Assembly: GCA_965372795.1 (NCBI GenBank)
Contig: CBDVDR010000002.1
Coordinates: 160,001 to 224,000 of the forward strand
Direction of reading: 5' to 3'
DNA from: an uncultured bacterium
GTDB taxonomy: Bacteria > Zixibacteria > MSB-5A5 > GN15 > FEB-12
DNA: 64,000 nucleotides
Below are positions 19,506 through 42,453 of this stretch, in pieces; the stretch's first letter is position 1; each line of letters opens with the position of its first letter. The notes under the pieces are model-generated. The model had not been told where the DNA came from and did not search any database. It worked only from the letters and a program-made list of their open reading frames with translations. The position numbers and the translations under genes are program-made.

Positions 19506-19506
19506 T

Positions 19507-19534
19507 AAAAAAACTGCTAAAAGCAGTTTTTTTT
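19507..19534 (-). terminator. Terminator-like hairpin between tolB and pal
   Basis: AAAAAAACTGCT-AA-AGCAGTTTTTTT. Confidence 0.55.
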
Positions 19535-19604
19535 GCATCAAGCAGTTTTTTAAATTTCCAGTATTCGGACGTAAATATAGGACTTTATGACACTTGATTC
19601 ATTT

Positions 19605-20933: not shown

Positions 20934-20947
20934 CGAGACCTCATTAT

Positions 20948-21661: not shown

Positions 21662-21665
21662 CGGT

Positions 21666-23098: not shown

Positions 23099-24223
23099 TT
23101 AGTCTTCGATCATTTCCACGTTAGCGCGAGGGATAATGGCTCTTTTTCCATCCTCAAATTCTACTTCAAGCACGCGAGCCTTTGATTCGGATTCAAGAAC
23201 ATGAAGCGGGGAAGGAAGGTCTGTGACCGACCCAATCTTTCCAAAATATGGATGACGGATCACACGAACCGGAGTACCGGTTTTTAAGCCCTGGATTTCT
23301 GTGTCAGCTTCCGAAGTATCAATCCGTTCTTCGGTTGATGGAATTACAACTTCCGGTCTGATAACACCGGCACGAATCTGGGTGGCACCGTTGATGCAAG
23401 CCATTTCGCCTTCATGTTTTTTCAGAAGGTCAAAAGTTTTTGAAGCCATGTTGATTTCTCCAAAACCTTCGGTTACAACTAAAGTAACAGAGATATCTTC
23501 TGAACCGGTAATGGCAACACCGATGTCGTAGCCAAGGAAATCACGCAAGTCTTTGTCATTAAAACCACCAACAACGATCCCTTTGGCGCCGACTTCAATA
23601 GCTTTTTGCAAAGCTCCGGCAGTTACAAGAGAACCGCCAACAATGACTTTATCTTTCATGTCAGGATTTATTAAATCTTCTGTTAGCACGGTGGCATTGT
23701 CAGGGGTGGCGATAACGATATTTCCATAAGTTTCACCGCCGATACCAAAGATTCCCTGAACAAAAGAAGCATTACAAGTGACAACTACGCCTTCGTTGGG
23801 GATGACTTCGGTCACTTCACCGCGAAGATAAGCTTTGACTTCAACCGGGACCGGTAGTCCGCGTTGGAGGATTTGGCCGGTAATATGAGAAACAGATTCC
23901 AGAGTACCATTGATTGTAGCTTCAGCCGAAGAAGAGAAGAATTTAATAAATGATTTTTTAATTGCGATAGCTTCGCCTTCTTTAATTGTGTCGCCCTCTT
24001 TTTTAACCATGACCATTTCGAGATCTTCAGGAGGTAATCCAAGTTTGTTGGCTATATTCAGAGGAACTACATTACCGGGTAGGTGAGTACGAGCCACAAC
24101 AACATCGGGGGTAACTTTGTCGCCAACTTTTACCACTACATCACCCTTGAGGGGGAGGATGCGACTTTTTTGAACCAGTAATTTTTCGGTGACTTTGAGT
24201 CCCGGAGTATAGGCATGTGCCAT
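23099..24223 (-). CDS. Uncharacterised cytoplasmic protein: barrel-sandwich-hybrid repeats, alpha/beta domain, C-terminal KOW-like motif
   Basis: VKVGDKV, KKEGDTIKEGE and A...G.(L/V)..V half-motifs; LQKAIEVGAKGIVVGG; GTPVRVIRHPYFGKIGSV. Confidence 0.7.
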   Translation of the reverse strand: MAHAYTPGLKVTEKLLVQKSRILPLKGDVVVKVGDKVTPDVVVARTHLPGNVVPLNIANKLGLPPEDLEMVMVKKEGDTIKEGEAIAIKKSFIKFFSSSAEATINGTLESVSHITGQILQRGLPVPVEVKAYLRGEVTEVIPNEGVVVTCNASFVQGIFGIGGETYGNIVIATPDNATVLTEDLINPDMKDKVIVGGSLVTAGALQKAIEVGAKGIVVGGFNDKDLRDFLGYDIGVAITGSEDISVTLVVTEGFGEINMASKTFDLLKKHEGEMACINGATQIRAGVIRPEVVIPSTEERIDTSEADTEIQGLKTGTPVRVIRHPYFGKIGSVTDLPSPLHVLESESKARVLEVEFEDGKRAIIPRANVEMIED

Positions 24224-24250
24224 AGGTTTAAACCTTCCTAAATTCTTATA

Positions 24251-25006
24251 TTATGATCGAGCTTTTTTTCTTTTTTTAATAACAATAAATAAAACAACAG
24301 CAATCGCCACAAAGATAGCAACTTTCGAACCGTTGCTGCTGCCATCATCGGAGTCAGTTCCTGTTTCAATATCAGCAATTTTCACATTCTCTTTTGGAAG
24401 CGCCGCATCGACGTTTTCATCAGAGAAGGTGTTTACCATATCATAAAAGTCATTTTTACTTGTTTCAAAGAGCGAGTCAGGAGAATAGAAGAAGAATTTT
24501 GCAATTCCCCGGTTATAGAATTTGAACATTAAGAGATTCTTTTTAAAAGATTCTGCTTTTTGAGACACATCGTTTAAAACCGAAACGATCTTTTTTTCTT
24601 TGTCATAGTTGGGTGCGTTTGATTTGAGATCGGTCAGGTAGTTTGCGACCGGAAAGTATTTAAGATCCTCACCGAATAGCTTAGTCATGGTTGCGAGGAC
24701 CGAGTCAATTTGTTTATCTGACAGTTGTCCGATTTTGTCGTAGGTCAAAAACAGATATTCGCCATTATAAAAGGGGTCGTTTGTTTTGGGAGCAAAAACC
24801 GCATCATAGTAAAAACTGGCATCACCGACGTTGTTCTGTGCTAAGTACAAATCGACCGTTGGGTAATCAATTTTCACCCAGTCATCAGGGAGATTAAAAT
24901 AAAACTCGCCGCTTAAACTGACATAGTTTTTTGCAAACGAACTTGTCAGAGTTACAGTTATTAATACTATTACTACAATTGTAAGCAGTTTAATAAAAGC
25001 TCTCAT
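24251..25006 (-). CDS. Exported protein with C-terminal TM anchor and basic tail (possible PsbP/DcrB-like fold)
   Basis: Signal peptide; FYFNLPDDW; acidic linker; TM followed by KKRKKARS. Confidence 0.65.
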   Translation of the reverse strand: MRAFIKLLTIVVIVLITVTLTSSFAKNYVSLSGEFYFNLPDDWVKIDYPTVDLYLAQNNVGDASFYYDAVFAPKTNDPFYNGEYLFLTYDKIGQLSDKQIDSVLATMTKLFGEDLKYFPVANYLTDLKSNAPNYDKEKKIVSVLNDVSQKAESFKKNLLMFKFYNRGIAKFFFYSPDSLFETSKNDFYDMVNTFSDENVDAALPKENVKIADIETGTDSDDGSSNGSKVAIFVAIAVVLFIVIKKRKKARS

Positions 25007-25009
25007 ACA

Positions 25010-26884
25010 TTATTCCCCTGTTAAAGCTTGAAGTTTTTCGGTTGAATAAATATCCAACTCATTCATCCATTTGGTTAAATAACTAACTCTGTCCTTTTCG
25101 CTCAAGGTTGACAGATCAAAAGGTCTGCCACGACCATCAAGGATAACACCGACCACGCCGCCATAAACATCTTTTTCGATTTTCTGTCCTTTACCGGCGC
25201 CAAGATCGTAATGTTTGGTAGGTTCAAACGTAGCTTTGGCAACTATCGGGAGTCCGTTTTCCTGAATACCGAGGTTGAATTTTTTCATTTCGAGATGTTC
25301 AAGAGTACCACTGACCGTTCCGGATGGAAGTTCAATAGTGTAATTCATAACCGGTCCGGCACCTTTTTTGGGAACACCAACCGGGGCAACACAGGTACCA
25401 AGATGGATCAGGCAATCTTTTTCAAATACTTCAGTAGCAGCTTTTGGCTGAACTTCGGTCAAGACCCCAAGCTGAGGCATCATGAAGATTGAGTCGACAG
25501 CCAGACGGGTGACACCTTCCGGTAAGAAAGAATCAATCATCATCAAAGCTGATTGCTGACGGCGAGGTGCGTGAGAAAGAACACCGCCGGAACCGATAAG
25601 CATATCGAGCGTCATCATGTTTACAATGGTAGCACCGGAAGCCGACTGTTCGAAAGCATCGGCAATGGTACGCTGTTGTTGAACGCCTTTTAAGACGGTC
25701 GCAAAGTTTTTGTGCTGAATGAAGGCGAGACGAAGAGCTTCTTTGGCAATTGCCTGTTCAAAAATTAGTTCTTCAAGAGATTGCGGGATCGTAGTCGGGC
25801 GAATCATTTTGTTTTTAACACGGTTTCTGAGGTCGCGTTCATCCATCGGGAATGGTACCCAGCGCATAACCATAGGCAGGGTAGCTTCGGCAAATACATT
25901 TGAGATAGAGTATGACATGCCAAGGTTAGCTGATACCGTACGGTTAAAGACGCCTTCGCCGTCATCTTCCGGACGGAAGACAGAGAATACATCGGTGGTT
26001 GCTCCACCAATGTCAACGCCAACGGCTTCAATATTGTACTGTTCGGCGATAGTTTGAATAATCAGACCAACTGCTCCCGGGGTAGGCATAATTGGAGCAT
26101 CGCCCCATTCCATTAGTTTTTTATAGCCGGGTGCCTGAGCCATGACGTGTTCCATGAACAGTTCATGGATTTCTTCACGGGCAGGACCAAGATTTTCACG
26201 TTCTAAGACAGGACGAAGATTGTCGACAACTTTTAAGTCAACTTTATCAGAAAGAGTTTCTTCAACGTTTTTAGCGGCATCTTTATTGCCGGCATAAATA
26301 ATCGGTAGTTTGTAACTTGAGCCAAGACGAGGGCGCGGGTCGGCGGCTGAAATAAGTTCGGCAAGTTCGACTACGTGAGTAGTTGTGCCACCGTCAATGC
26401 CGCCGGACAGGAGAATCATGTCGGGGCGTAAGTGGCGAATGCGTTCAATTTGTTGATGGGGGAGACGTTTATCATTGGATGAGATAACGTCCATGACAAT
26501 TGCGCCGGCACCAAGGGCGGCACGTTCGGCTGATTCGGCAGTCATTGATCTGACCACGCCGGCAACCATCATCTGTAAGCCACCTCCGGCTGATGATGTA
26601 GAGATGAAGACATCGGTACCAGTATTACCTTGGGCAGGGGAAATGAATTTGCCGTTTTCGTCAAGAATTTTCCTGCCGGATAATTCTTCGAGTTCCGCAA
26701 CAGCGTTGAGAACGCCCATAGTTACATCTTCAAACGGTGCTTCAACCGTAGTTGGAGCTTCACCTCTTGTAGTTTGGCGATACTCACCATTAATGAATTC
26801 AATAAGAATTGCTTTTGTAGTAGTAGATCCGCAATCGGTGGCGACAATAATTTTAATATCGTCAGGGTTATCAAACTTAGCCAT
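25010..26884 (-). CDS. Glutamate mutase L (GlmL/MutL)-like ASKHA-fold ATPase, long form
   Basis: DCGSTTTKA and VDIGGATTDV phosphate loops; TSSAGGGL, AALGAGA, LLSGGIDGG, IMPTPGAV and RTVSANLGM motifs; 624 aa. Confidence 0.88.
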   Translation of the reverse strand: MAKFDNPDDIKIIVATDCGSTTTKAILIEFINGEYRQTTRGEAPTTVEAPFEDVTMGVLNAVAELEELSGRKILDENGKFISPAQGNTGTDVFISTSSAGGGLQMMVAGVVRSMTAESAERAALGAGAIVMDVISSNDKRLPHQQIERIRHLRPDMILLSGGIDGGTTTHVVELAELISAADPRPRLGSSYKLPIIYAGNKDAAKNVEETLSDKVDLKVVDNLRPVLERENLGPAREEIHELFMEHVMAQAPGYKKLMEWGDAPIMPTPGAVGLIIQTIAEQYNIEAVGVDIGGATTDVFSVFRPEDDGEGVFNRTVSANLGMSYSISNVFAEATLPMVMRWVPFPMDERDLRNRVKNKMIRPTTIPQSLEELIFEQAIAKEALRLAFIQHKNFATVLKGVQQQRTIADAFEQSASGATIVNMMTLDMLIGSGGVLSHAPRRQQSALMMIDSFLPEGVTRLAVDSIFMMPQLGVLTEVQPKAATEVFEKDCLIHLGTCVAPVGVPKKGAGPVMNYTIELPSGTVSGTLEHLEMKKFNLGIQENGLPIVAKATFEPTKHYDLGAGKGQKIEKDVYGGVVGVILDGRGRPFDLSTLSEKDRVSYLTKWMNELDIYSTEKLQALTGE

Positions 26885-27291: not shown

Positions 27292-28587
27292 TTGGTTGAG
27301 GAAATGACTTTGAGTGACTTTTTGAACAATACACCTTCCATAAAAATTTTCAGGAATTACCTTATATATACATTTTTGTTACTTTTCCTAATTACATCAA
27401 ATATTTATTCACAAGATGAAATAGAGCCGGTTGATGAGCCAGCTCAAGTCTCCGATTCAGTCTTAGAAACTTTTGTACCTTCTCCCATAACTGGAATTTC
27501 GGTAAAAGATACTCCTAATGATGCCGGTAATTCAATTACAATCACTTGGGGATTATCACCTGATGATACAGTTGGCGGTAAAGTAGTAAAATATAGAATT
27601 CTCCGGTCTGATACCAGTTTTGCCGGGGATGGATATAAAGAGGTCGGCGATGTGCCGGCTGATAAAAATGAATATATTGATGGTCAGGTTGATGACGATC
27701 ATGTTTATACTTATGTAATCTCTACGGTTAATAATGTAGTAGAGAATGGTGAAACAGTTTGGGAAGTTTCAACCGAATCAGATCAGTCTGAACCGGTAAG
27801 TTCTTCGGCCCAATGGTTTGATATGAGGCGTATCAACGTCTTTGTCGGGGTGTTGATGGTTTGTGCCTTCATTATGTATTATATCAATCAGGCCAAATCA
27901 GGGAAGAAACTGTTTATACGTAAAATTGCCGGACTTGAAGCGGTGGATGAAGCTGTTGGCCGGGCAACTGAGATGGGGAAGAAGATTTTCTTTATACCCG
28001 GCACTCAGGATATGGATAATGTTCAGACGATTGCCGGAGTTACGATTTTAGGGCGTGTTGCCGAAATGGCTGCCACCTATGACACCTGGCTTGAAGTTCC
28101 CGTTTCACGTTCATTAGTATTAGTAACTGCCAAAGAGATAGTAAAAGAGGCTTACTCCAAAGCCGGTCGTCCAGATGCATTTAATGAAGATCAGGTACAT
28201 TATTTAACGGATGACCAGTTTGGGTATGCGGCGGGTATTGACGGCATGGTAGTACGTGAAAAACCGGCGACAATTTTCTTTATGGGTGCATTTTATGCCG
28301 AATCACTGATTTTGGCTGAAACCGGTAACTCAATCGGTGCGATTCAAATTGCCGGAACCGGAATGCCTTCACAACTGCCATTCTTTGTTGCTGCTTGTGA
28401 TTATACTTTAATAGGTGAAGAATTATTTGCCGCATCGGCGTATCTTTCCCGTGAGCCAAAACTTCTTGGTTCATTAAAGGGGCAGGATATGGGGAAAGCG
28501 GTAATTTTGGTAGCGATAATAATTGGAATTATATTGGAAACTTTTAATATATGGAATTTTTCATCACTATTTACGGTGATTGAGTAA
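27292..28587 (+). CDS. Cassette 1 subunit A: FN3-like domain + TM + DUF6754-like domain + TM
   Basis: Signal peptide; D.PND.G..I.ITW; IAGLEAVDEAVGRATEMG, AESLILAETG and ACDYTLIGEELFAASAYL. Start uncertain (27292-27310). Confidence 0.85.
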   Translation: MVEEMTLSDFLNNTPSIKIFRNYLIYTFLLLFLITSNIYSQDEIEPVDEPAQVSDSVLETFVPSPITGISVKDTPNDAGNSITITWGLSPDDTVGGKVVKYRILRSDTSFAGDGYKEVGDVPADKNEYIDGQVDDDHVYTYVISTVNNVVENGETVWEVSTESDQSEPVSSSAQWFDMRRINVFVGVLMVCAFIMYYINQAKSGKKLFIRKIAGLEAVDEAVGRATEMGKKIFFIPGTQDMDNVQTIAGVTILGRVAEMAATYDTWLEVPVSRSLVLVTAKEIVKEAYSKAGRPDAFNEDQVHYLTDDQFGYAAGIDGMVVREKPATIFFMGAFYAESLILAETGNSIGAIQIAGTGMPSQLPFFVAACDYTLIGEELFAASAYLSREPKLLGSLKGQDMGKAVILVAIIIGIILETFNIWNFSSLFTVIE

Positions 28588-28590
28588 GCG

Positions 28591-29238
28591 ATGCGTAGAG
28601 AAATACCGTTATTAATAACCGGCATCGTCGGTGTGGTTTTTGTGATTCAATATTTTGTTCCACATGCCCCCTTTGATCGGATGAATGCATGGTTTTCGGA
28701 TTGGTTTTCTATAATAGGTGCCTGTGCTATCTGGCTTGGTGCGCTTAATTTGTTGAAGATATCTTTCCAAAAGACAATGAAAAAGAAAGCTGACTGGGGT
28801 TATGCCGTTGTTACAATAATTTCTTTTTTCCTGATCACAATAATCGGATTTACTGCGGGCGAAGGGTTTCGGGAGCCGGGAACAGGCTTTACCTGGCTTT
28901 ATGATTTTGTATACACGCCGCTTTCGGCAACGATGTTTGCAATCTTAGCCTTTTTTGTCGCGTCAGCTTCTTATCGCGCTTTTAGAGCCCGAAATCTTGA
29001 TGCGACCCTTCTATTAGTAGCTGCGTTTTTGGTGATGATTGGAAGAGTGCCGGTGGGATATAGTATATCGTCATTTATGCCGGATGCTTTTCAGCTTCAA
29101 AATATAGCGACCTGGATAATGCAGTTTCCTCAGACTGCCGGCCAGCGGGCAATTATGATTGGTATCGCTCTTGGGATTGTCTCTACATCACTCAGAATTA
29201 TTCTTGGTATTGAACGTTCACATCTGGGGGGTGATTAA
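28591..29238 (+). CDS. Cassette 1 subunit B: polytopic membrane protein
   Basis: MRREIPL, TMFAILAFFVASASYRAFRARN and QRAIMIGI...ILGIER motifs. Confidence 0.85.
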   Translation: MRREIPLLITGIVGVVFVIQYFVPHAPFDRMNAWFSDWFSIIGACAIWLGALNLLKISFQKTMKKKADWGYAVVTIISFFLITIIGFTAGEGFREPGTGFTWLYDFVYTPLSATMFAILAFFVASASYRAFRARNLDATLLLVAAFLVMIGRVPVGYSISSFMPDAFQLQNIATWIMQFPQTAGQRAIMIGIALGIVSTSLRIILGIERSHLGGD

Positions 29239-30249
29239 TTGAGTACAAAAATTAAAGAATTGATTGTAGTAGCAATTATTCTGATTGTATCAATTGTATT
29301 TTATTTAGCAAAAATAAATAGCTGGTTTGGAGCAATTAAATTTTCAACGACCGTATCAATGATAATTGTCGGATTGATTTTTATCTCCTTATTGTATATT
29401 CTTTTCTTGACTCTAAAAGGGAAGCCGGTTGGTCGAAGGACAGTTTTCTTATATGTCGGTATTGCGGTATCACTTCCATTTTTTATGGATATTTCCCAGA
29501 CAATAAAGATTTCTCCAGAGGTTCAAACTTTGTATGATTGGATCGAAACCCTTCCGCCGGGTTCCAAAGCATTAGTGTCATTCGATTATGATCCTCCTTC
29601 AGCACCTGAACTTCAGCCGATGGCAGAATCATTTTTCCGCTTCTGTTTTAATAATGATATCAAAGTCATAATTATAGGTCTTTGGCCACAAGGTCCTCAA
29701 CAGGCGAACCTTGCCCTTGAAGTTGTTTTACAGGATGAAAATATAGCGGCTAAAAATTTACAGTATGGTATTGATTACGTTAATTTGGGATTCCAAACCG
29801 GGAATGAGTTTGTTATTCAAAGGATGGGTGCGGATTTTAAATCAATGTTTCCGACAGATTATTCCGGAACCGCTTACGATGATCTTCCTTTAGTAAAGAA
29901 CGTAAAGAATTTTGATAATATAGATTACAGTTTTAATTTATCTGCCGGTTATCCGGGAACAATCGAGTGGGTGCAGGTAGCGGTTGACCGTTACGCTGTT
30001 GATTTGGGTGCCGGCAATACTGCCGTACAGGCACCGCAATGTTATCCATATCTGAGGTCCGGACAGTTGAAAGGGATTCTCGGCGGCATGAATGGTGCGG
30101 CTGAATTTGAATTACTTACCGGACATGAAGGTAAAGGCACAAAGTTTATGTTGTCTCAATCATTTGCTCATATGGTTGTGATAGCATTTATTCTTATTGG
30201 TAATGTCGCCTATTTCAGGGGCGGTCGAGAGAAGAAACTCAAAGGTTAA
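29239..30249 (+). CDS. Cassette 1 subunit C: membrane-anchored alpha/beta protein
   Basis: SFDYDP..APELQPM, DYVNLG, YPYL.SGQL.GILGG..GAAEFE and QSFAH motifs. Confidence 0.85.
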   Translation: MSTKIKELIVVAIILIVSIVFYLAKINSWFGAIKFSTTVSMIIVGLIFISLLYILFLTLKGKPVGRRTVFLYVGIAVSLPFFMDISQTIKISPEVQTLYDWIETLPPGSKALVSFDYDPPSAPELQPMAESFFRFCFNNDIKVIIIGLWPQGPQQANLALEVVLQDENIAAKNLQYGIDYVNLGFQTGNEFVIQRMGADFKSMFPTDYSGTAYDDLPLVKNVKNFDNIDYSFNLSAGYPGTIEWVQVAVDRYAVDLGAGNTAVQAPQCYPYLRSGQLKGILGGMNGAAEFELLTGHEGKGTKFMLSQSFAHMVVIAFILIGNVAYFRGGREKKLKG

Positions 30250-30256
30250 GCGAATT

Positions 30257-30880
30257 ATGGATCATTTTTCAGTATGGGTTGCAGCTTTTTTTACAATGGG
30301 AATTGTTTCCTTTTTGTACAAGGACAATCACTGGTACAAACTCTGTGAATCAATTTTTGTTGGGATTTCTGCCGGATACTGGTTTGTGACTTTGTTCTGG
30401 GATAATATCTACGGGAAATTCTGGCTTGGCAAGGGTGAAGACCCGATGCTTTATGTCGGAGCCTTGTTGGGATTAATGATGATTCTCAGGTTGATTCCTA
30501 AAATTGGATGGATCTCCCGTTGGCCCTTGGCATTCATTGTCGGTGCGACCTCGGGTTTGTATCTTATAAATTATTTTTCATCAAATATAATGCGTCAGGT
30601 TGAAAATACGGTTATGCCGTTATTTGGCGCCGGATATGAAGCTGGAATTTATACTATAATCGGTAATATTATTGTGGCCGTCGGTACGTTTTCAGGGCTG
30701 ATTTATTTCTTTTTCTCAAAAGAACACAAAGGCGCCTTTGGCGCTACCGCCCGAGTCGGAATTATCTTTTTAATGATAACTTTCGGTGCATCTTTTGGCT
30801 ATACCGTTATGAGCCGTATGTCGCTTTTGATCGGACGAATTGACTTCCTGCTTGGCGACTGGCTGGGGATGATTAACTAG
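30257..30880 (+). CDS. Cassette 1 subunit D: polytopic membrane protein
   Basis: SFLYKDN, SRWP, YFFFSKEH and FGASFGYTVMSR; ATG at 30257. Confidence 0.85.
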   Translation: MDHFSVWVAAFFTMGIVSFLYKDNHWYKLCESIFVGISAGYWFVTLFWDNIYGKFWLGKGEDPMLYVGALLGLMMILRLIPKIGWISRWPLAFIVGATSGLYLINYFSSNIMRQVENTVMPLFGAGYEAGIYTIIGNIIVAVGTFSGLIYFFFSKEHKGAFGATARVGIIFLMITFGASFGYTVMSRMSLLIGRIDFLLGDWLGMIN

Positions 30881-32112
30881 TGAGAAATAAAAAATCAAAA
30901 TTACCTTTGTTGTTTTTATCAATTTTAATCGTCATCTCATTTAATATTTCAATCTTTTCTCAGGAAACTCCGGTTGTTGAAGAGGTAGATTCAACAATTA
31001 TTGTTGCCGCCCCGGTAACATCTCTGATAGCATCTGATTTTAAATATGATGATGGAGAAGCCATTGAATTAAGCTGGGTGCCGTCGATAGACGACCAACT
31101 GGTTGAGGGGAAAGTAATTGCTTATCGGGTTTACCGGAGAACAAATGGTGCTTTAGAGGAAAAGATTGCCGAACTACCGAAAGGTTCTGCTTACTACCGT
31201 GATGACGGTTTGGAAAAAGAGAATAGCTATATGTATAGTGTCACTTCTGTTTCGCTAAATTTTGAGCAATTCTCAACCGAGACGGCGCCGATTAGTCCTG
31301 AGAGAGAATGGCTTAACTATGATCGTTCGTATTTATTCTTAATAGCATTAATTATCACTTTGGCAATCGCTTTTTTCATAGAAACCGCCCGTCGCGGGAA
31401 AAAATTATTTGTCCGGAAGATTGCCGGATTAGAAGCTATTGACGAAGCAATCGGTCGTGCGACCGAAATGGGACGTCCGATTTTATATGTTCCGGGTATT
31501 CAGGATATGGATGATGTGCAGACTCTTGCCGGTTTAACAATTCTTGGACGAGTCTCCCGAATGATTGCTGAATATGATACCCGAATTTTTATGCCTGTTT
31601 CCCGTTCGTTGGTTATGACCGCCGGACGTGAAACGATTAAAGCTGCCTATCAATCAGCCGGTCGTCCTGATGCTTATAGCGATGACATGGTAAACTATAT
31701 AACAGACGAACAGTTTGGTTATGTTGCGGCGGTAGATGGAATTATGGTCCGTGAAAAACCGGCGACCTGTTTCTACATGGGAGCTTTCTTTGCGGAATCG
31801 CTTATTTTAGCAGAAACCGGAAATTCAATCGGAGCCATTCAGATAGCGGGTACTGCCCGTCCGGCACAGCTTCCATTTTTTATTGCCGCCTGTGATTTTA
31901 CTCTTATTGGTGAAGAACTGTTTGCAGCTTCGGCATATTTATCTAACGAACCAAAGCAGTTGGGTTCGTTAAAGGGTCAGGATATCGGCAAAGCGATAGC
32001 ATTAGTAGTGATTTTGATAGGCGTTATTTCAGCGACATTTTCTAAGGCATGGGATATAGAATTTATGACCGCAATTTTTGAATATTTAACAAATGTATTT
32101 TCTGTTAGTTAG
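30880..32112 (+). CDS. Cassette 2 subunit A (FN3-like + DUF6754-like)
   Basis: Paralogue of 27292-28587 (IAGLEAIDEAIGRATEMG); GTG start overlaps the D1 stop. Confidence 0.85.
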   Translation: MRNKKSKLPLLFLSILIVISFNISIFSQETPVVEEVDSTIIVAAPVTSLIASDFKYDDGEAIELSWVPSIDDQLVEGKVIAYRVYRRTNGALEEKIAELPKGSAYYRDDGLEKENSYMYSVTSVSLNFEQFSTETAPISPEREWLNYDRSYLFLIALIITLAIAFFIETARRGKKLFVRKIAGLEAIDEAIGRATEMGRPILYVPGIQDMDDVQTLAGLTILGRVSRMIAEYDTRIFMPVSRSLVMTAGRETIKAAYQSAGRPDAYSDDMVNYITDEQFGYVAAVDGIMVREKPATCFYMGAFFAESLILAETGNSIGAIQIAGTARPAQLPFFIAACDFTLIGEELFAASAYLSNEPKQLGSLKGQDIGKAIALVVILIGVISATFSKAWDIEFMTAIFEYLTNVFSVS

Positions 32113-32124
32113 TGAAAAGATAAT

Positions 32125-32799
32125 ATGAGAAGACAGATACCATTATTAATTACTTTTTTTGTTGGAACGCTTCTAATTGTTGCGGTTTTTGTTCCACCAT
32201 TTGAAAGCCTTGAGAAAACTTTTACGCTGTTTTTTGATATTATTGCTGTGTTCGCATTTTTTCTCGGCGGTGGCAACCTTGTCAGAGTTCATGTCAGAAA
32301 ATTGATTAGCAAAAAAGAGGACTGGACTTTTTCTATTGTAACTCTTGCTGGGTTTACCTTAATGCTCGTTGTCGGTTTATTCAAAATGGGCAACCCGGGT
32401 GGGATTGCCGCCTCGATTACTACCGAAGGTTCTTATTTTCAGGAAATATTTAATAACGTCATCAACCCGCTTCAATCCACGATGTATGCGTTATTAGCCT
32501 TTTTTGTAGCCTCGGCTTCCTATCGTGCCTTCCGGGCTAAAAACCGGGAAGCCACAATTCTTTTGGTCGCTGCCTTTATTATTCTTTTAGGGCGGACACC
32601 ATTAGGAATGATGATGACGGGGTGGATTCCTGAAAGCTTTTCAATTATGCAAATCCCGAATCTTGCAATATGGATTATGAATTCACCAAACTTAGCCGGT
32701 CAGAGAGCAATTATGATCGGGATTGGTTTGGGTGTTGTCTCGATGTCACTACGGTTAATACTTGGGATTGAACGAACCTATTTAGGAGGGGATGATTGA
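32125..32799 (+). CDS. Cassette 2 subunit B
   Basis: MRRQIPL, AFFVASASYRAFRAKN, ILGIER. Confidence 0.85.
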   Translation: MRRQIPLLITFFVGTLLIVAVFVPPFESLEKTFTLFFDIIAVFAFFLGGGNLVRVHVRKLISKKEDWTFSIVTLAGFTLMLVVGLFKMGNPGGIAASITTEGSYFQEIFNNVINPLQSTMYALLAFFVASASYRAFRAKNREATILLVAAFIILLGRTPLGMMMTGWIPESFSIMQIPNLAIWIMNSPNLAGQRAIMIGIGLGVVSMSLRLILGIERTYLGGDD

Positions 32800-33739
32800 T
32801 ATGCTAAATCCGATTCTTATCTCCCTGTCTAATATTGGTGTTATAATTTCGGTAATTATGATATTCGGCGGCTTGCTCTGGTTATTTATCAGATCAATCA
32901 AAGCTAAGGAAGTAGATCGCCGAATTATTTTCATATTTATATTTGTGGCTGTTGCCGCTCCAATTTTATTCCCGATTACCTTTGAAGAAAAAGCGACTCC
33001 GATTGTTAAAGCGGTTTTTGATAAAATTGAAAATCTTCCTCCCGGTTCAAATATGTTAATTTCATTTGATTTTGATCCGGCTATGGCTCCTGAAGTTCAG
33101 CCGATGGCTAATGCGATTAGTGCTCATGCACTTGAAAAAGGGCATAAGATAATTTTCATGTCACTTTGGGCGACCGGTCAGGCTTTGTTGTCGCAGACCC
33201 TTGATAATGTTATTCTGCCTCAGTTTCCTGAAAAGCAGGATTTGGTTGATTATGTTAATATCGGTTACAAGGCTGGGAATGAAGGCGTTTTGAATGTGAT
33301 CGTCGGTGATTTCAGGCAGATGTTTCCGACTGATGTAAATTCGGTTCCACTTGATGATATCGAATTATTTAATAATATAAAATCATGTAAAGATATGGAC
33401 TTAATCATTTCTATCGGTGGCGGGAAACCGGGACCGAAGGAATGGGTTTTATTCGTTGGCGATCCCGGTGATGTTCCGGTTGGGGCAGGGGTTGCGGCGG
33501 TAGTTGCTCCGCAGTTGTATCCTTATTTTCCAAGTCAGGTTGTAGGCATTCTTGGAGGAATAAAGGGAGCCGCTGAATATGAATCTGAATTAGTTTCAAG
33601 GCATGAAAAATTTAAAGATATGGATACTCCCGGATTGAGAATGATGGGTCCTCAGACATTAGCTCATATTGTTATTATGGCCTTTATTGTAATTGGGAAT
33701 GTGATTTATTTTCGCAGCCGCAAAGGGGAGACAAGATGA
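32792..33739 (+). CDS. Cassette 2 subunit C
   Basis: SFDFDPAMAPEVQPM, GILGGIKGAAEYE, QTLAH. Confidence 0.85.
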   Translation: MIDMLNPILISLSNIGVIISVIMIFGGLLWLFIRSIKAKEVDRRIIFIFIFVAVAAPILFPITFEEKATPIVKAVFDKIENLPPGSNMLISFDFDPAMAPEVQPMANAISAHALEKGHKIIFMSLWATGQALLSQTLDNVILPQFPEKQDLVDYVNIGYKAGNEGVLNVIVGDFRQMFPTDVNSVPLDDIELFNNIKSCKDMDLIISIGGGKPGPKEWVLFVGDPGDVPVGAGVAAVVAPQLYPYFPSQVVGILGGIKGAAEYESELVSRHEKFKDMDTPGLRMMGPQTLAHIVIMAFIVIGNVIYFRSRKGETR

Positions 33740-34578
33740 AAAAGTCGTCCTATATTGTCTTAGCGGTTGTCATGGGTTTATTTATTTTGAGTTGGATTAT
33801 GAAGTCCTCATCAGTGAGTGTTGCCGATGATAATTTTATCATGCGTGGTTTTCTGATCACTTTTGCCGCATTTTTAACACTGTCGGTTCTATCGTTTTTA
33901 TATAAAGATAATCCTTTTTACAAATTTGCCGAGCATCTGTTTGTAGGCGTTTCAGCCGCTTTCTGGATGTGTCTCGGGTTCTGGTCAACTATTGTTGGTA
34001 ATTTGATTCCCAGAATTTCAGCAGATTTATCGGAATTTTTTAAAGTTCCATATATAGGCGACGCCTGGGGATTAATATTCGGTTTAGATATTATGAACAT
34101 TGTCTATATGTTCCCTATCATTTTTGGTTTGCTTCTCTTGATGAGGCTGTCGACTAATTATGGGTGGTTATCCCGCTGGCCTCTGGCGCTGATCGTTGGA
34201 ACAACAGCCGGGTTAAATTTTATTCGTTACTTGTCCTCTGATTTTATTCAGCAGGTTTCTTCGACTTTTGTACCTTTGCTGGGTACTGATTGGCAGGGAA
34301 TCGGACATTTCTTTGCCAACATCAATCTGTCAGCTTCGGGACAATTAGTATTGATCCTTGCCAACTGGGTCATATTTCTCGGTGTTTTTTGCGGATTGAT
34401 ATATTTCTATTTTTCCAAAGAACATACCGGAGTCTTCGGGTCGGCCTCAAGGGTTGGTATTTGGATTTTAATGGTGACCTTCGGCGCATCATTTGGATAT
34501 ACGGTTATGGGACGCATCTCGCTTTTAGTCGGACGAATCACTTTTCTATTCAAAGATTGGTTAGAAATAATAACTTAA
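33736..34578 (+). CDS. Cassette 2 subunit D
   Basis: SFLYKDNPFYK, SRWP, FGASFGYTVMGR. Confidence 0.85.
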   Translation: MKKSSYIVLAVVMGLFILSWIMKSSSVSVADDNFIMRGFLITFAAFLTLSVLSFLYKDNPFYKFAEHLFVGVSAAFWMCLGFWSTIVGNLIPRISADLSEFFKVPYIGDAWGLIFGLDIMNIVYMFPIIFGLLLLMRLSTNYGWLSRWPLALIVGTTAGLNFIRYLSSDFIQQVSSTFVPLLGTDWQGIGHFFANINLSASGQLVLILANWVIFLGVFCGLIYFYFSKEHTGVFGSASRVGIWILMVTFGASFGYTVMGRISLLVGRITFLFKDWLEIIT

Positions 34579-34624: not shown

Positions 34625-36025
34625 ATGAAATGTAAATCGGTAATCATATTACTTATGCTGTTTGTAATGTCGTTGCCTGTAGCCGCCCAGGATGAAGCTG
34701 TGACCGATAGTCTGGCCGATTCCACCGAAGTAATCCTTCCGGCTCCAGCTACGATGTTTACAGGCAAGGATACCGACAACGATCATGGTCATTCTGTCAC
34801 GTTAAACTGGGAAACCTCAGTTGATGATGGAAGTGACGATGCTTCAATTTCAGTTCTGTCTTATGAAATCTTTCGCTGGACTCCTTTGATGAGAGATACA
34901 GTTGAACAGGTTCGCAGCAAACTTGCTATAGCAGAGTCAGCTTTGGATGAAGGTGCTGGAATTAAGAGTGAATTGAAGCAGAGCCGAGATGACCTTCTTG
35001 AAGAATATGAAGCCTTGTTGGTTGGATATCCTCAGGCTTATGATCAGTATCCAGAAAATGGTGGATGGACAAATGTTGGCAAAGTGCCATCCGGTACTAC
35101 CACCTTTCAGGATAAAGGCAGCAAAAAGCGTGAAGCATTTGATTATTCTCCTGATTTTTGCAACTTTTATTATCGGGTGGATGCAGTCACCGTTGATTCC
35201 ACAATAAGATCATCATCTGAGATTTTCGGACCGGTGCAATCATTCGGTCAGTGGTTTAACAGCGGGCGTCTTCCGGTATTTTTGGCTGTTTTAATCTTTG
35301 GGCTATTGACTCTATTCTTTGTTCAAAGAGCCAAAAGAGGTGCTAATTTATATGTGCGTCCTTTGGCAGGTATCGAAGCCGTTGACGATGCTATCGGTCG
35401 GGCTACAGAAATGGGTAAACCGATTCTTTATGTTCTTGGCTTGGGTACAGCCTCAGATGTTGCGACTATCGCTTCATTTACAATTTTAGGTCGTGTGGCA
35501 AAAAAAGTTGCTGAATATCAGACAACCTTGATTGTGCCGACTTATGATCCGATTGTAATGACAGTTGCTCAGGAAGTTGTAAAGTCAGCTTTCCTTGATG
35601 CCGGTCGTCCTGATGATTTTAAAGAAGATACGGTTCACTTTGTGACCCAGTCACAGTTTGCTTATGTTGCAGCTGTCAATGGTACAATGCTTCGTGAACT
35701 TCCGGCTACAAATGTTTATATGGGTAAATTCTTTGCAGAATCGTTGCTTCTTGCAGAAACAGGAGCAATTGCTAAATCGGTTCAAATTGCCGGTACAGAT
35801 GAAATTGCTCAGATACCTTTCTTTATTGTAGCTTGTGACTATACATTAATAGGAGAAGAATTATACGCTGCTTCGGCTTATCTTGGTCGTGAGCCTATTT
35901 TATTAGGTTCCTTAAAAGCTCAGGATTGGGCAAAGGCTGCAGTAATTATTCTTGGAATCGTCGGTATAATAGCCGCTAACTTTGGCCTGACAGAATTTAC
36001 CAGTCTGTTTCAGGTAACTAATTAG
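34625..36025 (+). CDS. Cassette 3 subunit A (FN3-like with helical insert + DUF6754-like)
   Basis: LAGIEAVDDAIGRATEMG, ACDYTLIGEELYAASAYL. Confidence 0.85.
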   Translation: MKCKSVIILLMLFVMSLPVAAQDEAVTDSLADSTEVILPAPATMFTGKDTDNDHGHSVTLNWETSVDDGSDDASISVLSYEIFRWTPLMRDTVEQVRSKLAIAESALDEGAGIKSELKQSRDDLLEEYEALLVGYPQAYDQYPENGGWTNVGKVPSGTTTFQDKGSKKREAFDYSPDFCNFYYRVDAVTVDSTIRSSSEIFGPVQSFGQWFNSGRLPVFLAVLIFGLLTLFFVQRAKRGANLYVRPLAGIEAVDDAIGRATEMGKPILYVLGLGTASDVATIASFTILGRVAKKVAEYQTTLIVPTYDPIVMTVAQEVVKSAFLDAGRPDDFKEDTVHFVTQSQFAYVAAVNGTMLRELPATNVYMGKFFAESLLLAETGAIAKSVQIAGTDEIAQIPFFIVACDYTLIGEELYAASAYLGREPILLGSLKAQDWAKAAVIILGIVGIIAANFGLTEFTSLFQVTN

Positions 36026-36038
36026 GAGGTGGAATAGA

Positions 36039-36854
36039 ATGAAAAGACAAATACCTCTCTTTTTAGTTTTTCTGTTCGGAATGTTCATGATAATTCAATA
36101 TTTTGTACCTCATGAATCATCTGAATGGATCTATGAATTCCTTCTCGAATGGATTGTGATTATCGGAATTTTTGCGCTTGCACTCGGAATCTGGTCGCTG
36201 TTGAGAGTTTCATTAGATAAAATTAAAACTAAAAAACCGAATTGGATATATTCATATCTGACATTATTCGGACTTTTTGCAATGATCATTTTCGGTTTCA
36301 CAGCGAAGAATGGCGATCCGTGGGGGATGTATTTCCCATTTGTTGCCTGTGTTCTGTTGGCTATTGGAATGATAATTCATACGATAATTTCATCATCGCA
36401 AAAAACCTTGTACGCTTCGCTGACAGGACTATTTATTTTATTGGCGGTCCTTATCTCAATTTTTGACAGCAGCTGGAGTTTCCATTTCAGCACTGCCGAT
36501 GGTGTTCAGAACCCGATGTTCAGAGCCTTCTTTGATCATATCTTGATTCCGTGCTTGTCAACAATGTTTGCCCTGTTAGCATTCTTTATTGCATCAGCAG
36601 CCTATCGTGCCTTTAGAGCAAGGAATCTTCTGGCAACCCTTCTGTTAATCGCGGCACTTATTGTGATGATGCGATTTAATCCGTGGTTTGCAGCACTTTA
36701 TGGTGATTTTGGTGCTAAAACATCTAACTGGCTTATGAATGTTCCCAACTTGGCAGCTCAGCGAGCTATCGTTATCGGGATTGGTCTCGGTATCGTTGCT
36801 ACTGCTCTAAAAGTTATCCTGGGCATTGAACGCGGCTATATGGGGAAAGGATAA
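36039..36854 (+). CDS. Cassette 3 subunit B
   Basis: MKRQIPL, AFFIASAAYRAFRARN, ILGIER; two extra TM helices; AGGAGG RBS. Confidence 0.85.
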   Translation: MKRQIPLFLVFLFGMFMIIQYFVPHESSEWIYEFLLEWIVIIGIFALALGIWSLLRVSLDKIKTKKPNWIYSYLTLFGLFAMIIFGFTAKNGDPWGMYFPFVACVLLAIGMIIHTIISSSQKTLYASLTGLFILLAVLISIFDSSWSFHFSTADGVQNPMFRAFFDHILIPCLSTMFALLAFFIASAAYRAFRARNLLATLLLIAALIVMMRFNPWFAALYGDFGAKTSNWLMNVPNLAAQRAIVIGIGLGIVATALKVILGIERGYMGKG

Positions 36855-36864
36855 GGAGGACAGT

Positions 36865-37743
36865 ATGGATGTATTTGAAAAACTGATGAATCTTGACCGT
36901 CGCTGGGTCTTTTTGCTTTTGATAATTGTTTGTGTATTCTCATATGCTGTTGATTTTAATGTTCCCATTTTGGTTGAACCGGAAACAGAAAAGATATTTG
37001 AGTTTATTGACAATCTTGATGAAGGCGAAATTATACTAGTTGCAATAGATTATGATCCTAATAACATGGCCGAACTTCACCCTATGACCTATACGGTGGT
37101 TGAGCATTGCTGGCGTAAAAAAGTCAAAGTGATTTTTACAGCTTTGTCTCAGAACGGTCCCGGCATGGCGGATCAGGCGATACGTGATATCTCAGACTCA
37201 TTACTTATTGATAAAACTTATAACGGTGTTGAGTTTGAAGGCCGAGAGATCGTAAATGGAATAGATTACTGCTTCCTTGGTTATAAACCATATTATGCAC
37301 TTGTAATTCTGGCAATGGGGCAGGATTTCAGACTGCCTTTCCCGAATGATTACTATGGCAGTCCCCTTGATTCATTACCAATGATGAGAGGTGTCAGCAA
37401 TTACGATGACATGGCTTGTGTTGTTGATCTTTCCGGTGGTAATATAACTGATGCCTGGATTTCATACGGACAGGGCAGATTCGGATTCCCGCTTGCTCTT
37501 GGGCTTACCGGTGTAATGACAGCTCAGTATTATCCATTCCTTGGTTCAGGTCAGGTTTTTGGAATAATGGGAGGACTTTTAGGAGCCGCCCAATATGAAG
37601 AAATGGCTGAGAATCCCGGCTTGGCTAAAGATGGAATGCGAGTTCAGCTTGGGGCTCATGTTGTAATCATAATTTTTATTATTATGGGTAACGTTGGATT
37701 ATTGATGGAACGTCGCAGACAAAGAAGGGAAGGAGGTATCTAA
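36865..37743 (+). CDS. Cassette 3 subunit C
   Basis: AIDYDP..MAELHPM, GIMGGLLGAAQYE, QLGAH; AAGGAGG RBS before ATG 36865. Confidence 0.85.
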   Translation: MDVFEKLMNLDRRWVFLLLIIVCVFSYAVDFNVPILVEPETEKIFEFIDNLDEGEIILVAIDYDPNNMAELHPMTYTVVEHCWRKKVKVIFTALSQNGPGMADQAIRDISDSLLIDKTYNGVEFEGREIVNGIDYCFLGYKPYYALVILAMGQDFRLPFPNDYYGSPLDSLPMMRGVSNYDDMACVVDLSGGNITDAWISYGQGRFGFPLALGLTGVMTAQYYPFLGSGQVFGIMGGLLGAAQYEEMAENPGLAKDGMRVQLGAHVVIIIFIIMGNVGLLMERRRQRREGGI

Positions 37744-38549
37744 TGGATTTTACTACTTTTATATGGACTACTTTTGGTGCCTTTTTAACCCTTGGCATCT
37801 TTTCGTTCCTGTACAAAGATAACCCATTCTATAAGATTGCCGAGCATCTTGTAGTAGGTGTTTCAGCAGGATATTTTGTGGTTATTTTATGGCATAACGG
37901 ACTAACCCCAAACCTATTTCAACGTCTTGACGATGGCAGTTGGTATTTACTATGGCTAAATTCTTCAGCGCCATGGTATATTGTGCCGGCGCTTTTGGGT
38001 GTCTTGATGTGGACTCGTTTCTCAAAGAAATATTCCTGGGTTTCCCGTTGGCCGATGGGCTTATATATTGGTATTGCAACCGGTGTTGCTATCCCGCTTG
38101 AAATGGGTGCCAAAGTAAACCGTCAGTTGTTTGCAGTCATGGAAAAAGGTATCGATTGGACCAATTTCTTTGGTGTCAATGGATTTAATCTGTTGGATTC
38201 AGCTTCCGGCTTATCACAGTTAATAATTTTCGTCGGAACTGTTGCCGCTTTGGTGTACTTTTTCTTCTCCAAAGCCCATACCGGTGTTTTTGGCGGAGTT
38301 GCAAAGTTTGGAATCTGGATATTAATGATAGGTTTCGGAGCCTCTTTTGGCTATACGGTGATGGCTCGAATATCACTGTTTATTAACCGTCTGCAGTTCC
38401 TTGATATCAACTGGTATCAGAATGCGATGGATACTTCCAACGCCAATCATCATGCCGGCTTCCTAATCTTTTTCTGGTTGCTGGTACTGCTTGTGCTTGG
38501 ATATGCAGTTAAAGAATTTATAGATTTCAGGAAATCTAAGTCAGCTTAA
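37743..38549 (+). CDS. Cassette 3 subunit D
   Basis: SFLYKDNPFYK, SRWP, FGASFGYTVMAR. Confidence 0.85.
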   Translation: MDFTTFIWTTFGAFLTLGIFSFLYKDNPFYKIAEHLVVGVSAGYFVVILWHNGLTPNLFQRLDDGSWYLLWLNSSAPWYIVPALLGVLMWTRFSKKYSWVSRWPMGLYIGIATGVAIPLEMGAKVNRQLFAVMEKGIDWTNFFGVNGFNLLDSASGLSQLIIFVGTVAALVYFFFSKAHTGVFGGVAKFGIWILMIGFGASFGYTVMARISLFINRLQFLDINWYQNAMDTSNANHHAGFLIFFWLLVLLVLGYAVKEFIDFRKSKSA

Positions 38550-38569: not shown

Positions 38570-38603
38570 AAATCCCGTTATTGAGAAATAGCGGGATTTT
38601 TTT
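38570..38603 (+). terminator. Terminator closing the 12-gene array
   Basis: AAATCCCGTTATT-GAGA-AATAGCGGGATTT followed by a T-run. Confidence 0.8.
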
Positions 38604-39585: not shown

Positions 39586-42453
39586 ATGGCTGCCAGAAAA
39601 ACTGTAGCAAAGAAAAAGACGGCCAAAAAAGCCGTAAAACAAAAGAAAAAAGCAACACCGAAGGTGACCAAAAAAGTGATGAAAACTGAGACTAAAGAAA
39701 AGACCGTTAAAGCAAAAACTGCTGTTAAGTCGAAGACTGAAAAGCCAAAAGTTGCTAAGGCGAAAGATACAAAAGTAAAATCGACCGGGAAATATTATTA
39801 TTTCTTTGGCTCTGGTAAAGCCGAAGGAAAAGCATCCATGAAAGATGAACTTGGCGGCAAAGGTGCAAATCTGGCCGAAATGACAAATACCGGAGTTCCG
39901 GTTCCTCCCGGTTTTACAATTTCAACCGCAGCCTGTCATCTGTTTTATGAACAAGGGATGAAAATCCCCAAAGATATCAACAGTGATATGGTACCTTATA
40001 TTGGGAAAATAGAAAAGGCGACCGGACAGAAGTTTGGTGATCCGGAAAATCCTCTGCTAATTTCGGTTCGTTCCGGTGCAAAATATTCTATGCCGGGAAT
40101 GATGGATACAATTCTAAATCTTGGGTTGAATGAAGCGACAGTCAACGGCCTTGCAGAAAAAACCAAAAATCCGCGATTTGCATTGGATAACTATCGTAGA
40201 TTTATTTCGATGTTTGGCGATGTGGTTTTGGGTATTGATCGTGATCTGTTTGAGGGCGTAATCGATAAGAAGAAAAAAGATCGCAAAGTAAAACAGGATA
40301 GCTCGCTTCAAGCCAACGATCTTCAGGAAATTGTAAAACGATTTAAACAAATTATTAAACGCAAGACCGGTGAAGTATTCCCTGATGATCCATGGGATCA
40401 GCTTCAGATGTCCCGTGATGCGGTTTTCCGCAGTTGGAATAATCCTCGTGCGATTTCTTATCGCCGGATGAATAATATTCCTTCTGATATTGGTACGGCG
40501 GTCAATATTCAAGCTATGGTATTCGGGAATATGGGCAATGATTCTGCCACCGGGGTTGGATTTACCCGTAACCCATCGAACGGTGAAAAAGAATTTTATG
40601 GCGAATTTTTGGTTAATGCCCAGGGTGAAGATGTTGTTGCCGGAATAAGAACACCACAGCAGATAAAAAATCTTGAAAAAATAATGCCGGATGCATTTAA
40701 GAAGCTCAAAACAATCACTACGAAACTTGAGAAACATTACGCCGAGATCCAGGATTTTGAGTTTACTATTCAGCAGGGTAAATTATTCATGCTTCAAACC
40801 AGAAATGGTAAACGGACCGTTCAGGCGGCAATTAAAATTGCAGTTGATATGGTCAACGAGAAGCTGATAACTAAAGAAGAAGCCATTAAACGGATAGAGC
40901 CCGATCAATTGGATCAGCTGCTTCATCCGAGAATTGACCCCAGCGCCAAATGTGAAGTGTTTGCAAAAGGTCTTGCCGCTTCACCGGGAGCAGCTTCCGG
41001 GATGGTCTTTTTTACGGCAGAAGAAGCTGTAAAAAATGCCGGTAAGAAAACAGTCATCCTTGTTCGTGAAGAGACAAATCCGGATGATATCGAGGGCATG
41101 AACGCCTCTGCTGGTATTTTAACCGCCAGGGGTGGGATGACATCCCATGCTGCTGTGGTTGCTCGAGGAATGGGCAAATGTGCCGTAACCGGTGCTGAAG
41201 CAATTAGAGTGAATCTTAAGAAGAAGCAATTTCAGGTCGGCAAATTAACAATTAAAGAGGGTGAAGTTATCACTCTAAACGGTTCGACCGGTGAAATCAT
41301 GATGGGTAAGGTTCCAACAATAGAGCCTGAATTATCCGGTGAATTTTCAACCTTCATGAGTTGGGCTGATGAATTTCGTACTTTAAAAGTCAGGACAAAT
41401 GCTGATACGCCTAAAGATGCTGTTAAAGCGCTTAAATTTGGGGCTGAAGGAATCGGACTTTGTCGCACAGAACATATGTTTTTTGCAGATGATAGAATTC
41501 CAATTGTTCAAAATATGATAATCGCCGATTCACCTGAAGAACGTCAGGCTGCTTTGGATAAACTTTTAAATTTCCAGAAAAAAGATTTCAAAGCGATCTT
41601 TGATGCGATGCAGGGAAAGCCGGTCACAATCCGGACTCTTGATCCACCTCTGCATGAATTCCTTCCTTCAAAAGAAGAAATTAATTTACAGCTCCAGGAT
41701 CTTGATGAAGAACTGGATGATTATGAAGAAAGAAAAGAACGATTGGAGAAATTCCTTCGTCGTATAGATGAGCTCAAAGAAGTTAATCCAATGCTTGGAC
41801 AACGAGGGTGTCGTTTAGGGATTTTGTATCCGGAAATAACTGAGATGCAGACCCGGGCTATTATTAAAGCAGCCTGTGAACTTGTAAAAGACAAAAAGAA
41901 AGTTATGCCGGAAATCATGATACCTTTGGTAGGACATATCAATGAGTTCAAGCATCAAAAAGAAGTTGTTCAGAGAATAGCTAATGAAATCATCTCAAAA
42001 ACCAAAGCGAAAGTGCTTGATTATAAAATAGGCACCATGATTGAGATTCCAAGGGCAGCTTTAACAGCTGATGAAATAGCTGAGGAAGCTGAATTCTTCA
42101 GTTTTGGTACTAATGATTTAACCCAGATGACCATGGGATTCTCAAGAGATGATGCCGGCAAATTCCTTTCGCACTATGTCGAAAATGATATTTTACCGCA
42201 TGATCCATTTGTCTCGATTGACCAGGATGGTGTCGGTCAACTCATAAAGATGGGTAAAGAGAAAGGTCGGGCGGTTAAGCCTGATTTGAAGATAGGAATT
42301 TGCGGTGAACATGGCGGTGATCCGAAATCAATTGAGTTCTGCCATAAATTAGGTCTGGACTATGTTTCGTGTTCGCCATATAGGGTGCCGATTGCAAGAC
42401 TGGCCGCTGCTCATGCAGCTTTAGCAGATAAGAAAAAAAGTAAGAAGAAATAG
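39586..42453 (+). CDS. ppdK: Pyruvate, phosphate dikinase with Lys/Ala-rich N-terminal extension
   Basis: LGGKGANLAEM, SVRSGA, GGMTSHAAVVARG, GIGLCRTEHMF and GICGEHGG motifs. Confidence 0.98.
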   Translation: MAARKTVAKKKTAKKAVKQKKKATPKVTKKVMKTETKEKTVKAKTAVKSKTEKPKVAKAKDTKVKSTGKYYYFFGSGKAEGKASMKDELGGKGANLAEMTNTGVPVPPGFTISTAACHLFYEQGMKIPKDINSDMVPYIGKIEKATGQKFGDPENPLLISVRSGAKYSMPGMMDTILNLGLNEATVNGLAEKTKNPRFALDNYRRFISMFGDVVLGIDRDLFEGVIDKKKKDRKVKQDSSLQANDLQEIVKRFKQIIKRKTGEVFPDDPWDQLQMSRDAVFRSWNNPRAISYRRMNNIPSDIGTAVNIQAMVFGNMGNDSATGVGFTRNPSNGEKEFYGEFLVNAQGEDVVAGIRTPQQIKNLEKIMPDAFKKLKTITTKLEKHYAEIQDFEFTIQQGKLFMLQTRNGKRTVQAAIKIAVDMVNEKLITKEEAIKRIEPDQLDQLLHPRIDPSAKCEVFAKGLAASPGAASGMVFFTAEEAVKNAGKKTVILVREETNPDDIEGMNASAGILTARGGMTSHAAVVARGMGKCAVTGAEAIRVNLKKKQFQVGKLTIKEGEVITLNGSTGEIMMGKVPTIEPELSGEFSTFMSWADEFRTLKVRTNADTPKDAVKALKFGAEGIGLCRTEHMFFADDRIPIVQNMIIADSPEERQAALDKLLNFQKKDFKAIFDAMQGKPVTIRTLDPPLHEFLPSKEEINLQLQDLDEELDDYEERKERLEKFLRRIDELKEVNPMLGQRGCRLGILYPEITEMQTRAIIKAACELVKDKKKVMPEIMIPLVGHINEFKHQKEVVQRIANEIISKTKAKVLDYKIGTMIEIPRAALTADEIAEEAEFFSFGTNDLTQMTMGFSRDDAGKFLSHYVENDILPHDPFVSIDQDGVGQLIKMGKEKGRAVKPDLKIGICGEHGGDPKSIEFCHKLGLDYVSCSPYRVPIARLAAAHAALADKKKSKKK

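Follow-up and report, generated by a model that had tools for sequence, protein, structure and literature searches.

A conserved four-subunit membrane module of Zixibacteria with two bitopic subunits whose Rossmann-like domains are predicted to lie on opposite sides of the membrane

The genes analyzed here lie in a 64,000-nucleotide stretch of an uncultured member of the Zixibacteria (assembly GCA_965372795.1, contig CBDVDR010000002.1, positions 160,001 to 224,000), hereafter the window, in which three cassettes, each with four genes in the order A-B-C-D, follow one another head to tail on the + strand between positions 27292 and 38549. Computational analysis showed that these genes belong to a conserved membrane module of four subunits and that two of these, the bitopic A and C, carry Rossmann-like domains. 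We consider it probable that A and C are subunits of an inner-membrane A-B-C-D module that expose these domains, of about 200 residues each, on opposite faces, the A domain being predicted to be cytoplasmic and the C domain periplasmic. The two proteins constitute a two-faced pair rather than a demonstrated inverted duplication. The ABCD module is new as a system, and this newness is not extended to the claim, made in an earlier note on this DNA, that A and C are homologous. The evidence is laid out mainly for the last of the three cassettes in the array, which comprises A3, B3, C3, and D3.

Subunit A belongs to an established domain family. A1, A2, and A3 matched Pfam DUF6754 (PF20539) with 426.5, 415.9, and 379.6 bits, respectively, in comparison with a gathering cut-off of 27 bits, and the alignments ran from positions 2-3 to 255-256 of the 257-position model with E values of about 1e-114 to 1e-128; in A3, the match occupies residues 208-461 (E 7.5e-114, 379.6 bits). 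The family is uncharacterized and its entry names no function. It covers subunit A only, since neither B, C, nor D reached the cut-off of any Pfam or NCBIfam family. A full-text literature search for DUF6754 or PF20539 found no paper, and the module is not named in any paper of the searched literature. Profile searches of PDB sequences returned no match at E <= 10 for the A family and six matches for the C family, the best of them with E 0.67, which is too weak to use. The start of C3 had been placed at a TTG (36826) in the earlier note, and other gene callers place it at the ATG at 36865, which yields the 292-residue protein called in the window (P0001). The three C paralogs of the window are 29-35% identical to one another.

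The module is widespread and its gene order is retained over large evolutionary distances. All 151 genomes sampled from the phylum contained PF20539, mostly with four to six matches in each, and none of 14 well-known control genomes did. The source genome, which is 98.65% complete, carries five A-B-C-D cassettes, the three of the window and two on other contigs, whose A subunits are short and devoid of an ectodomain. A scan of species genomes found 610 relatives, and we kept 78 loci from at least ten candidate phyla, including Zixibacteria, Eisenbacteria, Fermentibacteria, Stahlbacteria, Latescibacteria, WOR-3, Edwardsbacteria, Poribacteria, Scalindua, and others. The ABCD order was kept across these loci, 29 of which read exactly ABCD, the rest being tandem or truncated forms. 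The C family alone comprises 4794 representative clusters at E <= 0.001.

Structure prediction revealed a similar architecture in the two bitopic subunits. AlphaFold2 models were obtained from custom alignments for residues 196-466 of A3 (91 sequences; pLDDT 92.1, pTM 0.84) and for C3 (144 sequences; pLDDT 96.2, pTM 0.91). Both models consist of a transmembrane (TM) helix, a helix alpha0, six beta-alpha units, and a long helix running into the second TM helix; compared with A3, the C3 model has one hairpin more and a loop of greater length. When the models were compared with PDB structures using VIA-align, 14 entries were common to the 50 best of A3 and the 50 best of C3; both models matched small Rossmann-like chains almost end to end, and the matched ranges were collinear (beta1 at A 69-70 and C 54-55, the end at A 225-240 and C 250-263). 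By transitivity through these common matches, we infer that the cores of A and C share a classical Rossmann-like fold. Foldseek searches against the PDB returned nothing beyond alpha/beta matches of a generic kind, with a best E of 6e-3 for A and of 5.3e-4 for C. The earlier note had paired the two domains element by element on the basis of short sequence strings, all of which are present in A3 and C3. The seven quoted blocks fall on equivalent elements of the two models, namely alpha0 with beta1, beta2, beta3, beta4, alphaE, beta6 with alphaF, and the last TM helix, so the pairing holds for secondary structure; for sequence it proved no better than chance.

The distribution of charged residues around the two TM helices was strictly opposite in the two families. 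Lys and Arg were counted in the 12-residue flanks of both helices in 110 A and 232 C proteins. In A, the mean counts were 1.60 before TM1, 4.55 after TM1, 2.00 before TM2, and 0.78 after TM2, in contrast to 3.37, 0.96, 1.07, and 3.94 at the same four places in C. The domain side was the richer one in Lys and Arg in every one of the 110 A proteins and the poorer one in all 232 C proteins, so that the charge pattern, which the earlier note had read as evidence of topology in cassette 3, holds throughout both families.

Other features of the subunits point in the same direction. A3 has a signal-peptide-like start followed by about 190 residues ahead of TM1, and an N-terminal hydrophobic stretch was found in 90 of the 98 A proteins that have at least 60 residues ahead of the domain. 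The N-terminus of A would thus be exported, as signal peptide and ectodomain, after which the chain would re-enter the membrane, and this re-entry would leave the DUF6754 domain in the cytoplasm. C is predicted to start and end in the cytoplasm, which would put its domain in the periplasm, and B and D both appear to start in the cytoplasm. A C-type domain without TM helices of its own is inserted in B at position 92/93, between the third and the fourth helix; a search that used one protein of this kind as query listed 120 proteins, of which 6 have the insert. Compared with the loop before it, this loop 3-4 is poorer in Lys and Arg in 95 of 96 B proteins. One C-family representative, an 838-residue protein (P0163), holds within its domain an insert of the CARDB type, which is a cell-surface domain. 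A Zixibacteria chromosome record has C and D as a single 571-residue protein with a short Arg/Lys-rich linker (L050:7658-9370, + strand), which may reflect either a genuine fusion or a frameshift of the record; here the Arg-rich tail of C is joined to the first helix of D via about 10 residues, which fits a cytoplasmic C-terminus of C. Together, these lines of sequence evidence strongly indicate that the A and C domains lie on opposite sides of the membrane, and they back the earlier proposal of one architecture used with the A domain inside and the C domain outside.

Some points weigh against this picture. The topology is deduced from the positive-inside rule together with the domain context, and the charge counts come from related, non-independent sequences. 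HEAT repeats, which are more usual in cytoplasmic proteins, occur inside the domain of the C-family representative P0260 (643 residues). The identity of the A and C folds, in turn, passes through shared PDB matches with middling Z values (8-10), a range for which the aligner warns that a match can reflect no more than a common arrangement. The HEAT-repeat insert of this one C-family protein would favor a rival reading in which the predicted topology is wrong and a single side of the membrane harbors both domains. We regard such a same-side placement as very improbable, given that the Lys/Arg bias has opposite senses in all A and all C proteins counted, that A has a signal-peptide-like start with an ectodomain, that the C-type domain sits in a Lys/Arg-poor loop of B, and that a CARDB insert is found in a C-family protein.

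A separate matter is whether A and C are related by descent, as the earlier note had proposed in describing them as distant homologues. BLASTP of A3 against C3 gave a best E of 2.1, and the block of the last TM helix gave 2.9. The comparison of hidden Markov models (HMMs), which the earlier note had named as a check, was performed with hhalign and yielded P 0.11 for three paralogs of each subunit. With 110 A and 232 C proteins from many phyla, the values were 0.027 (TM on TM), 0.045 (A 24-133/C 9-112), and 0.067 (last TM), and with 91 A and 144 C proteins the value was 0.041 over the TM helix only. A control comparison of A with D reached 0.026, no worse than A with C, and the range of 0.027-0.11 hence lends no support to the homology. 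When the soluble domains alone were aligned, the profile score of A against C (16.8) was in line with those of reversed C (16.6), column-shuffled C (15.9 +/- 3.1, maximum 26.4), and block-shuffled C (16.6 +/- 2.6). Among the 100 top non-self sub-threshold hits of the A-domain HMM, 10 were C proteins, which equals their share of the database, and A proteins made up 16 of the 100 corresponding hits of the C-domain HMM, again the chance level.

Searches across families led to the same result. C1-C3 had no match to PF20539 at E <= 1, and when 144 C-family members were searched against Pfam at E <= 10, PF20539 was outside the 25 most-matched of the 62 families found. All 30 language-model neighbors of C were clusters without a Pfam family; none was DUF6754, and they were C-family clusters only. 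No fusion of A with C was present among the 13 long C-family representatives scanned, and at the 78 loci no open reading frame (ORF) was matched by both the A and the C models. In all, five kinds of sequence test placed the proposed homology at chance level. B and D, which the earlier note had suggested comparing in the same way, showed no likeness either (hhalign P 0.22). The weak hhalign matches between A and C are collinear with the register of the earlier note, which is notable and does not amount to evidence. What A and C have in common is accordingly their architecture and a fold that is very widespread; they may share an ancestor, and every test run placed such a relationship at chance.

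These observations bear on two accounts of how the pair arose. In the first, a TM-Rossmann-TM gene was duplicated before the phyla split, one copy was flipped by redistribution of Lys and Arg, A gained its signal peptide and ectodomain, and the sequence signal was subsequently erased. True inverted paralogs of this kind would explain why an unusual architecture with identical element order is common to A and C in one operon, why one set of small Rossmann-like PDB domains is covered from end to end by both models, why the weak hhalign matches (A 24-133/C 9-112 and the last TM helix) are collinear with the proposed register, and why the Lys/Arg bias is strictly opposite. Set against this, no test rose above chance although both families are well conserved (the mean column identity of the A family is 55% across phyla), and the conserved motifs following beta1 differ, with a Gly-rich loop in A (consensus Pro-Gly-Leu-Gly and then variable residues) and an acidic Asp/Pro loop in C (consensus Asp-Tyr-Asp-Pro). 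Moreover, the 30 neighbor clusters of C include none from DUF6754, B and D are unlike even though duplication of the whole module should have doubled them too, and the Rossmann-like fold is among the commonest known. On this balance, inverted paralogy appears rather unlikely. The broader conjecture that A and C descend from one TM-Rossmann-TM ancestor with one copy flipped, and now form the two faces of a new module coupling an actin-fold nucleotide-hydrolyzing protein to the periplasm, is in our estimation unlikely. In that case one and the same globular domain would serve in the cytoplasm in A and in the periplasm in C, an entire soluble domain of 200 residues having switched compartments within an inverted-topology gene pair.

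In the second account, two unrelated Rossmann-like domains were independently recruited into a two-helix membrane hairpin, one for each face of a core made of B and D. This convergence agrees with the outcome of every sequence test and with the mobility of the C-type domain, which is found on its own, without TM helices, in the loop of B, where no A-type domain was seen. It would leave the equal element order, the similar size, and the identical TM-domain-TM framing in neighboring genes as a notable coincidence, and we rate it as a serious candidate that falls somewhat short of an even chance.

The opposite orientation of A and C would give the module a globular face in the cytoplasm and another in the periplasm, arranged around the polytopic B and D, which may form the membrane core. 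We propose that the highly conserved cytoplasmic face of A could dock a GlmL-type actin-fold protein, a 374-residue partner, or both, and that the faster-evolving periplasmic face of C, along with the variable ectodomain of A, could meet a ligand or partner. Through these contacts the module might couple a cytoplasmic nucleotide-driven step to a periplasmic event, conceivably transport (uptake or export) or signaling. The presence of several cassettes with differing ectodomains would fit modules of different specificity that share one cytoplasmic partner.

The candidate partners are encoded by genes divergent from A1. The GlmL/MutL-type gene is the sole copy in the genome, and its product scored 240.7 bits, far below the NCBIfam GlmL cut-offs (475 bits). 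In other phyla, relatives of this MutL-type protein and of the 374-residue protein were found immediately upstream of A and co-oriented with it at 6 and 10 of the 78 loci, respectively, counts that refer to 6-kb flanks which may cut genes off. A literature search on GlmL with actin and membrane found nothing relevant. A four-chain complex prediction for cassette 5 (A5, B5, and D5 with the C5 partner) scored 0.73 with no contacts listed, and a control with A replaced scored higher, at 0.78, so that the prediction speaks neither for nor against binding or sidedness. A point against the functional part of the proposal is that the link to the actin-fold protein is one of gene neighborhood at these 6 and 10 loci, and the roles of A, B, C, and D are predictions from sequence and models. 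The coordinates of all these features are collected in Table 1.

Table 1. Positions in the window of the cassettes, the parts of subunits A3 and C3, and the neighboring features
Feature	Position	Strand	Remarks
Cassette 1	27292-30880	+	A1 27292-28587, B1 28591-29238, C1 29239-30249, D1 30197-30880
Cassette 2	30880-34578	+	A2 30880-32112, B2 32125-32799, C2 32792-33739, D2 33736-34578
A3, 466 residues	34625-36025	+	ORF; signal-peptide-like N-terminus, ectodomain, TM1, DUF6754 Rossmann-like domain, TM2
A3 hydrophobic, signal-peptide-like N-terminal segment (residues 1-21)	34625-34687	+	hydropathy segment at residues 3-21
A3 TM1 (residues 216-234)	35270-35326	+	Lys/Arg cluster after
A3 Rossmann-like domain (residues 248-421), predicted cytoplasmic	35366-35887	+	
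A3 TM2 (residues 438-456)	35936-35992	+	short uncharged tail
B3, polytopic membrane subunit	36039-36854	+	ORF; no Pfam/NCBIfam family above cut-off; kept in ABCD order
C3, 292 residues from the ATG at 36865	36865-37743	+	TM1, Rossmann-like domain, TM2, Arg-rich tail
C3 TM1 (residues 15-33)	36907-36963	+	nearly invariant Arg-Arg before
C3 Rossmann-like domain (residues 39-247), predicted periplasmic	36979-37605	+	
C3 TM2 (residues 262-280)	37648-37704	+	Arg-rich tail after
D3, polytopic membrane subunit	37743-38549	+	ORF; no family
Terminator-like hairpin	38570-38599	+	13-pair stem and T run; consensus match only; end of the 12-gene array
Divergent neighbors upstream of A1	23099-26884	-	three genes
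GlmL/MutL-type actin-fold protein, 624 residues	25010-26884	-	PF13941, E 8.9e-130, full-length
Membrane-anchored protein, 251 residues	24251-25006	-	
Protein of 374 residues	23099-24223	-	no family

Several further features of the subunits and of the window were recorded. The ectodomain of A3 (residues 1-202) had no Pfam match at E <= 0.001, on which ground an Fn3 identity considered for it was dropped, and it contains about 57 extra Glu/Leu/Ala-rich residues (approximately residues 85-145; ectodomain at 34625-35230) that are absent from A1 and A2. B3 (36039-36854) has two extra predicted helices at residues 99-142, at the insert hot spot of the B family, and D3 (37743-38549) has an extra C-terminal helix in comparison with the other D paralogs. 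In some lineages, a B protein with the C-type insert stands beside an ordinary C gene (L085:1255-2595, + strand; P0271-P0275; P0386), and many other B proteins carry unrelated inserts of 130-250 residues at the same site, that of P0330 having the precomputed family CBM_4_9. Elsewhere in the window, a Tol-Pal cluster that is complete by Pfam (18106-22807, - strand) encodes MotA/TolQ, ExbD/TolR, TolB, a TPR protein, a TonB_C-type TolA-like protein, and an OmpA-family Pal containing about 17 prolines in a row; these genes show that the envelope is diderm, with a periplasm. The window also encodes a pyruvate phosphate dikinase (39586-42453, + strand) whose N-terminus is extended by about 75 residues rich in Lys.

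The reach of the module, which occurs in every sampled genome of the phylum and in many uncultured phyla, with thousands of clusters for C alone, is considerable for a system that matches no solved structure by sequence. Its predicted cytoplasmic and periplasmic globular faces offer concrete handles for laboratory study, and its parts can be set beside several known systems. For the Rossmann-like domains, the nearest comparisons are those of the KTN/RCK and MT0777 types (PDB 1lss, 1lsu, 3llv, and 1kjn). The models of A and C show the three-layer alpha/beta/alpha fold with a six-stranded parallel sheet that is seen in KTN/RCK; the GxGxxG motif after beta1, the dinucleotide-binding loop of NAD-binding KTN/RCK Rossmann domains, is present in neither A nor C. 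The GlmL/MutL-type neighbor shares full-length PF13941 with the GlmL/MutL accessory proteins of glutamate mutase and differs from them in that its relatives in other phyla sit in an operon with ABCD genes, not with mutase genes.

The earlier note had also likened A and C to the inverted repeats of alternating-access transporters. In LeuT, in transporters of the major facilitator superfamily (MFS), and in similar proteins, a single chain contains the repeats as bundles of helices that build the path of the substrate, and the common ground with A and C is confined to the idea of two like halves in opposite orientation. Each of A and C supplies two helices and no membrane bundle. Because what they have in common is found in their soluble domains, beyond the membrane, and no likeness connects B with D, the pair is not of the inverted-repeat transporter type and the analogy does not carry over. 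A closer comparison is offered by the pairs of small multidrug resistance (SMR) proteins (EbrAB/YdgEF) and of Fluc/CrcB proteins, which are adjacent, oppositely oriented paralogs of small membrane proteins, clearly homologous and made of membrane helices only. A and C resemble them in being encoded by neighboring genes, in their equal helix count, and in their opposite Lys/Arg bias. They depart from them in that no sequence homology was detectable between A and C and in that the part that would be flipped is a globular domain of 200 residues. If A and C were true paralogs after all, inverted-topology gene pairs would extend from small helix bundles to proteins with large soluble domains.

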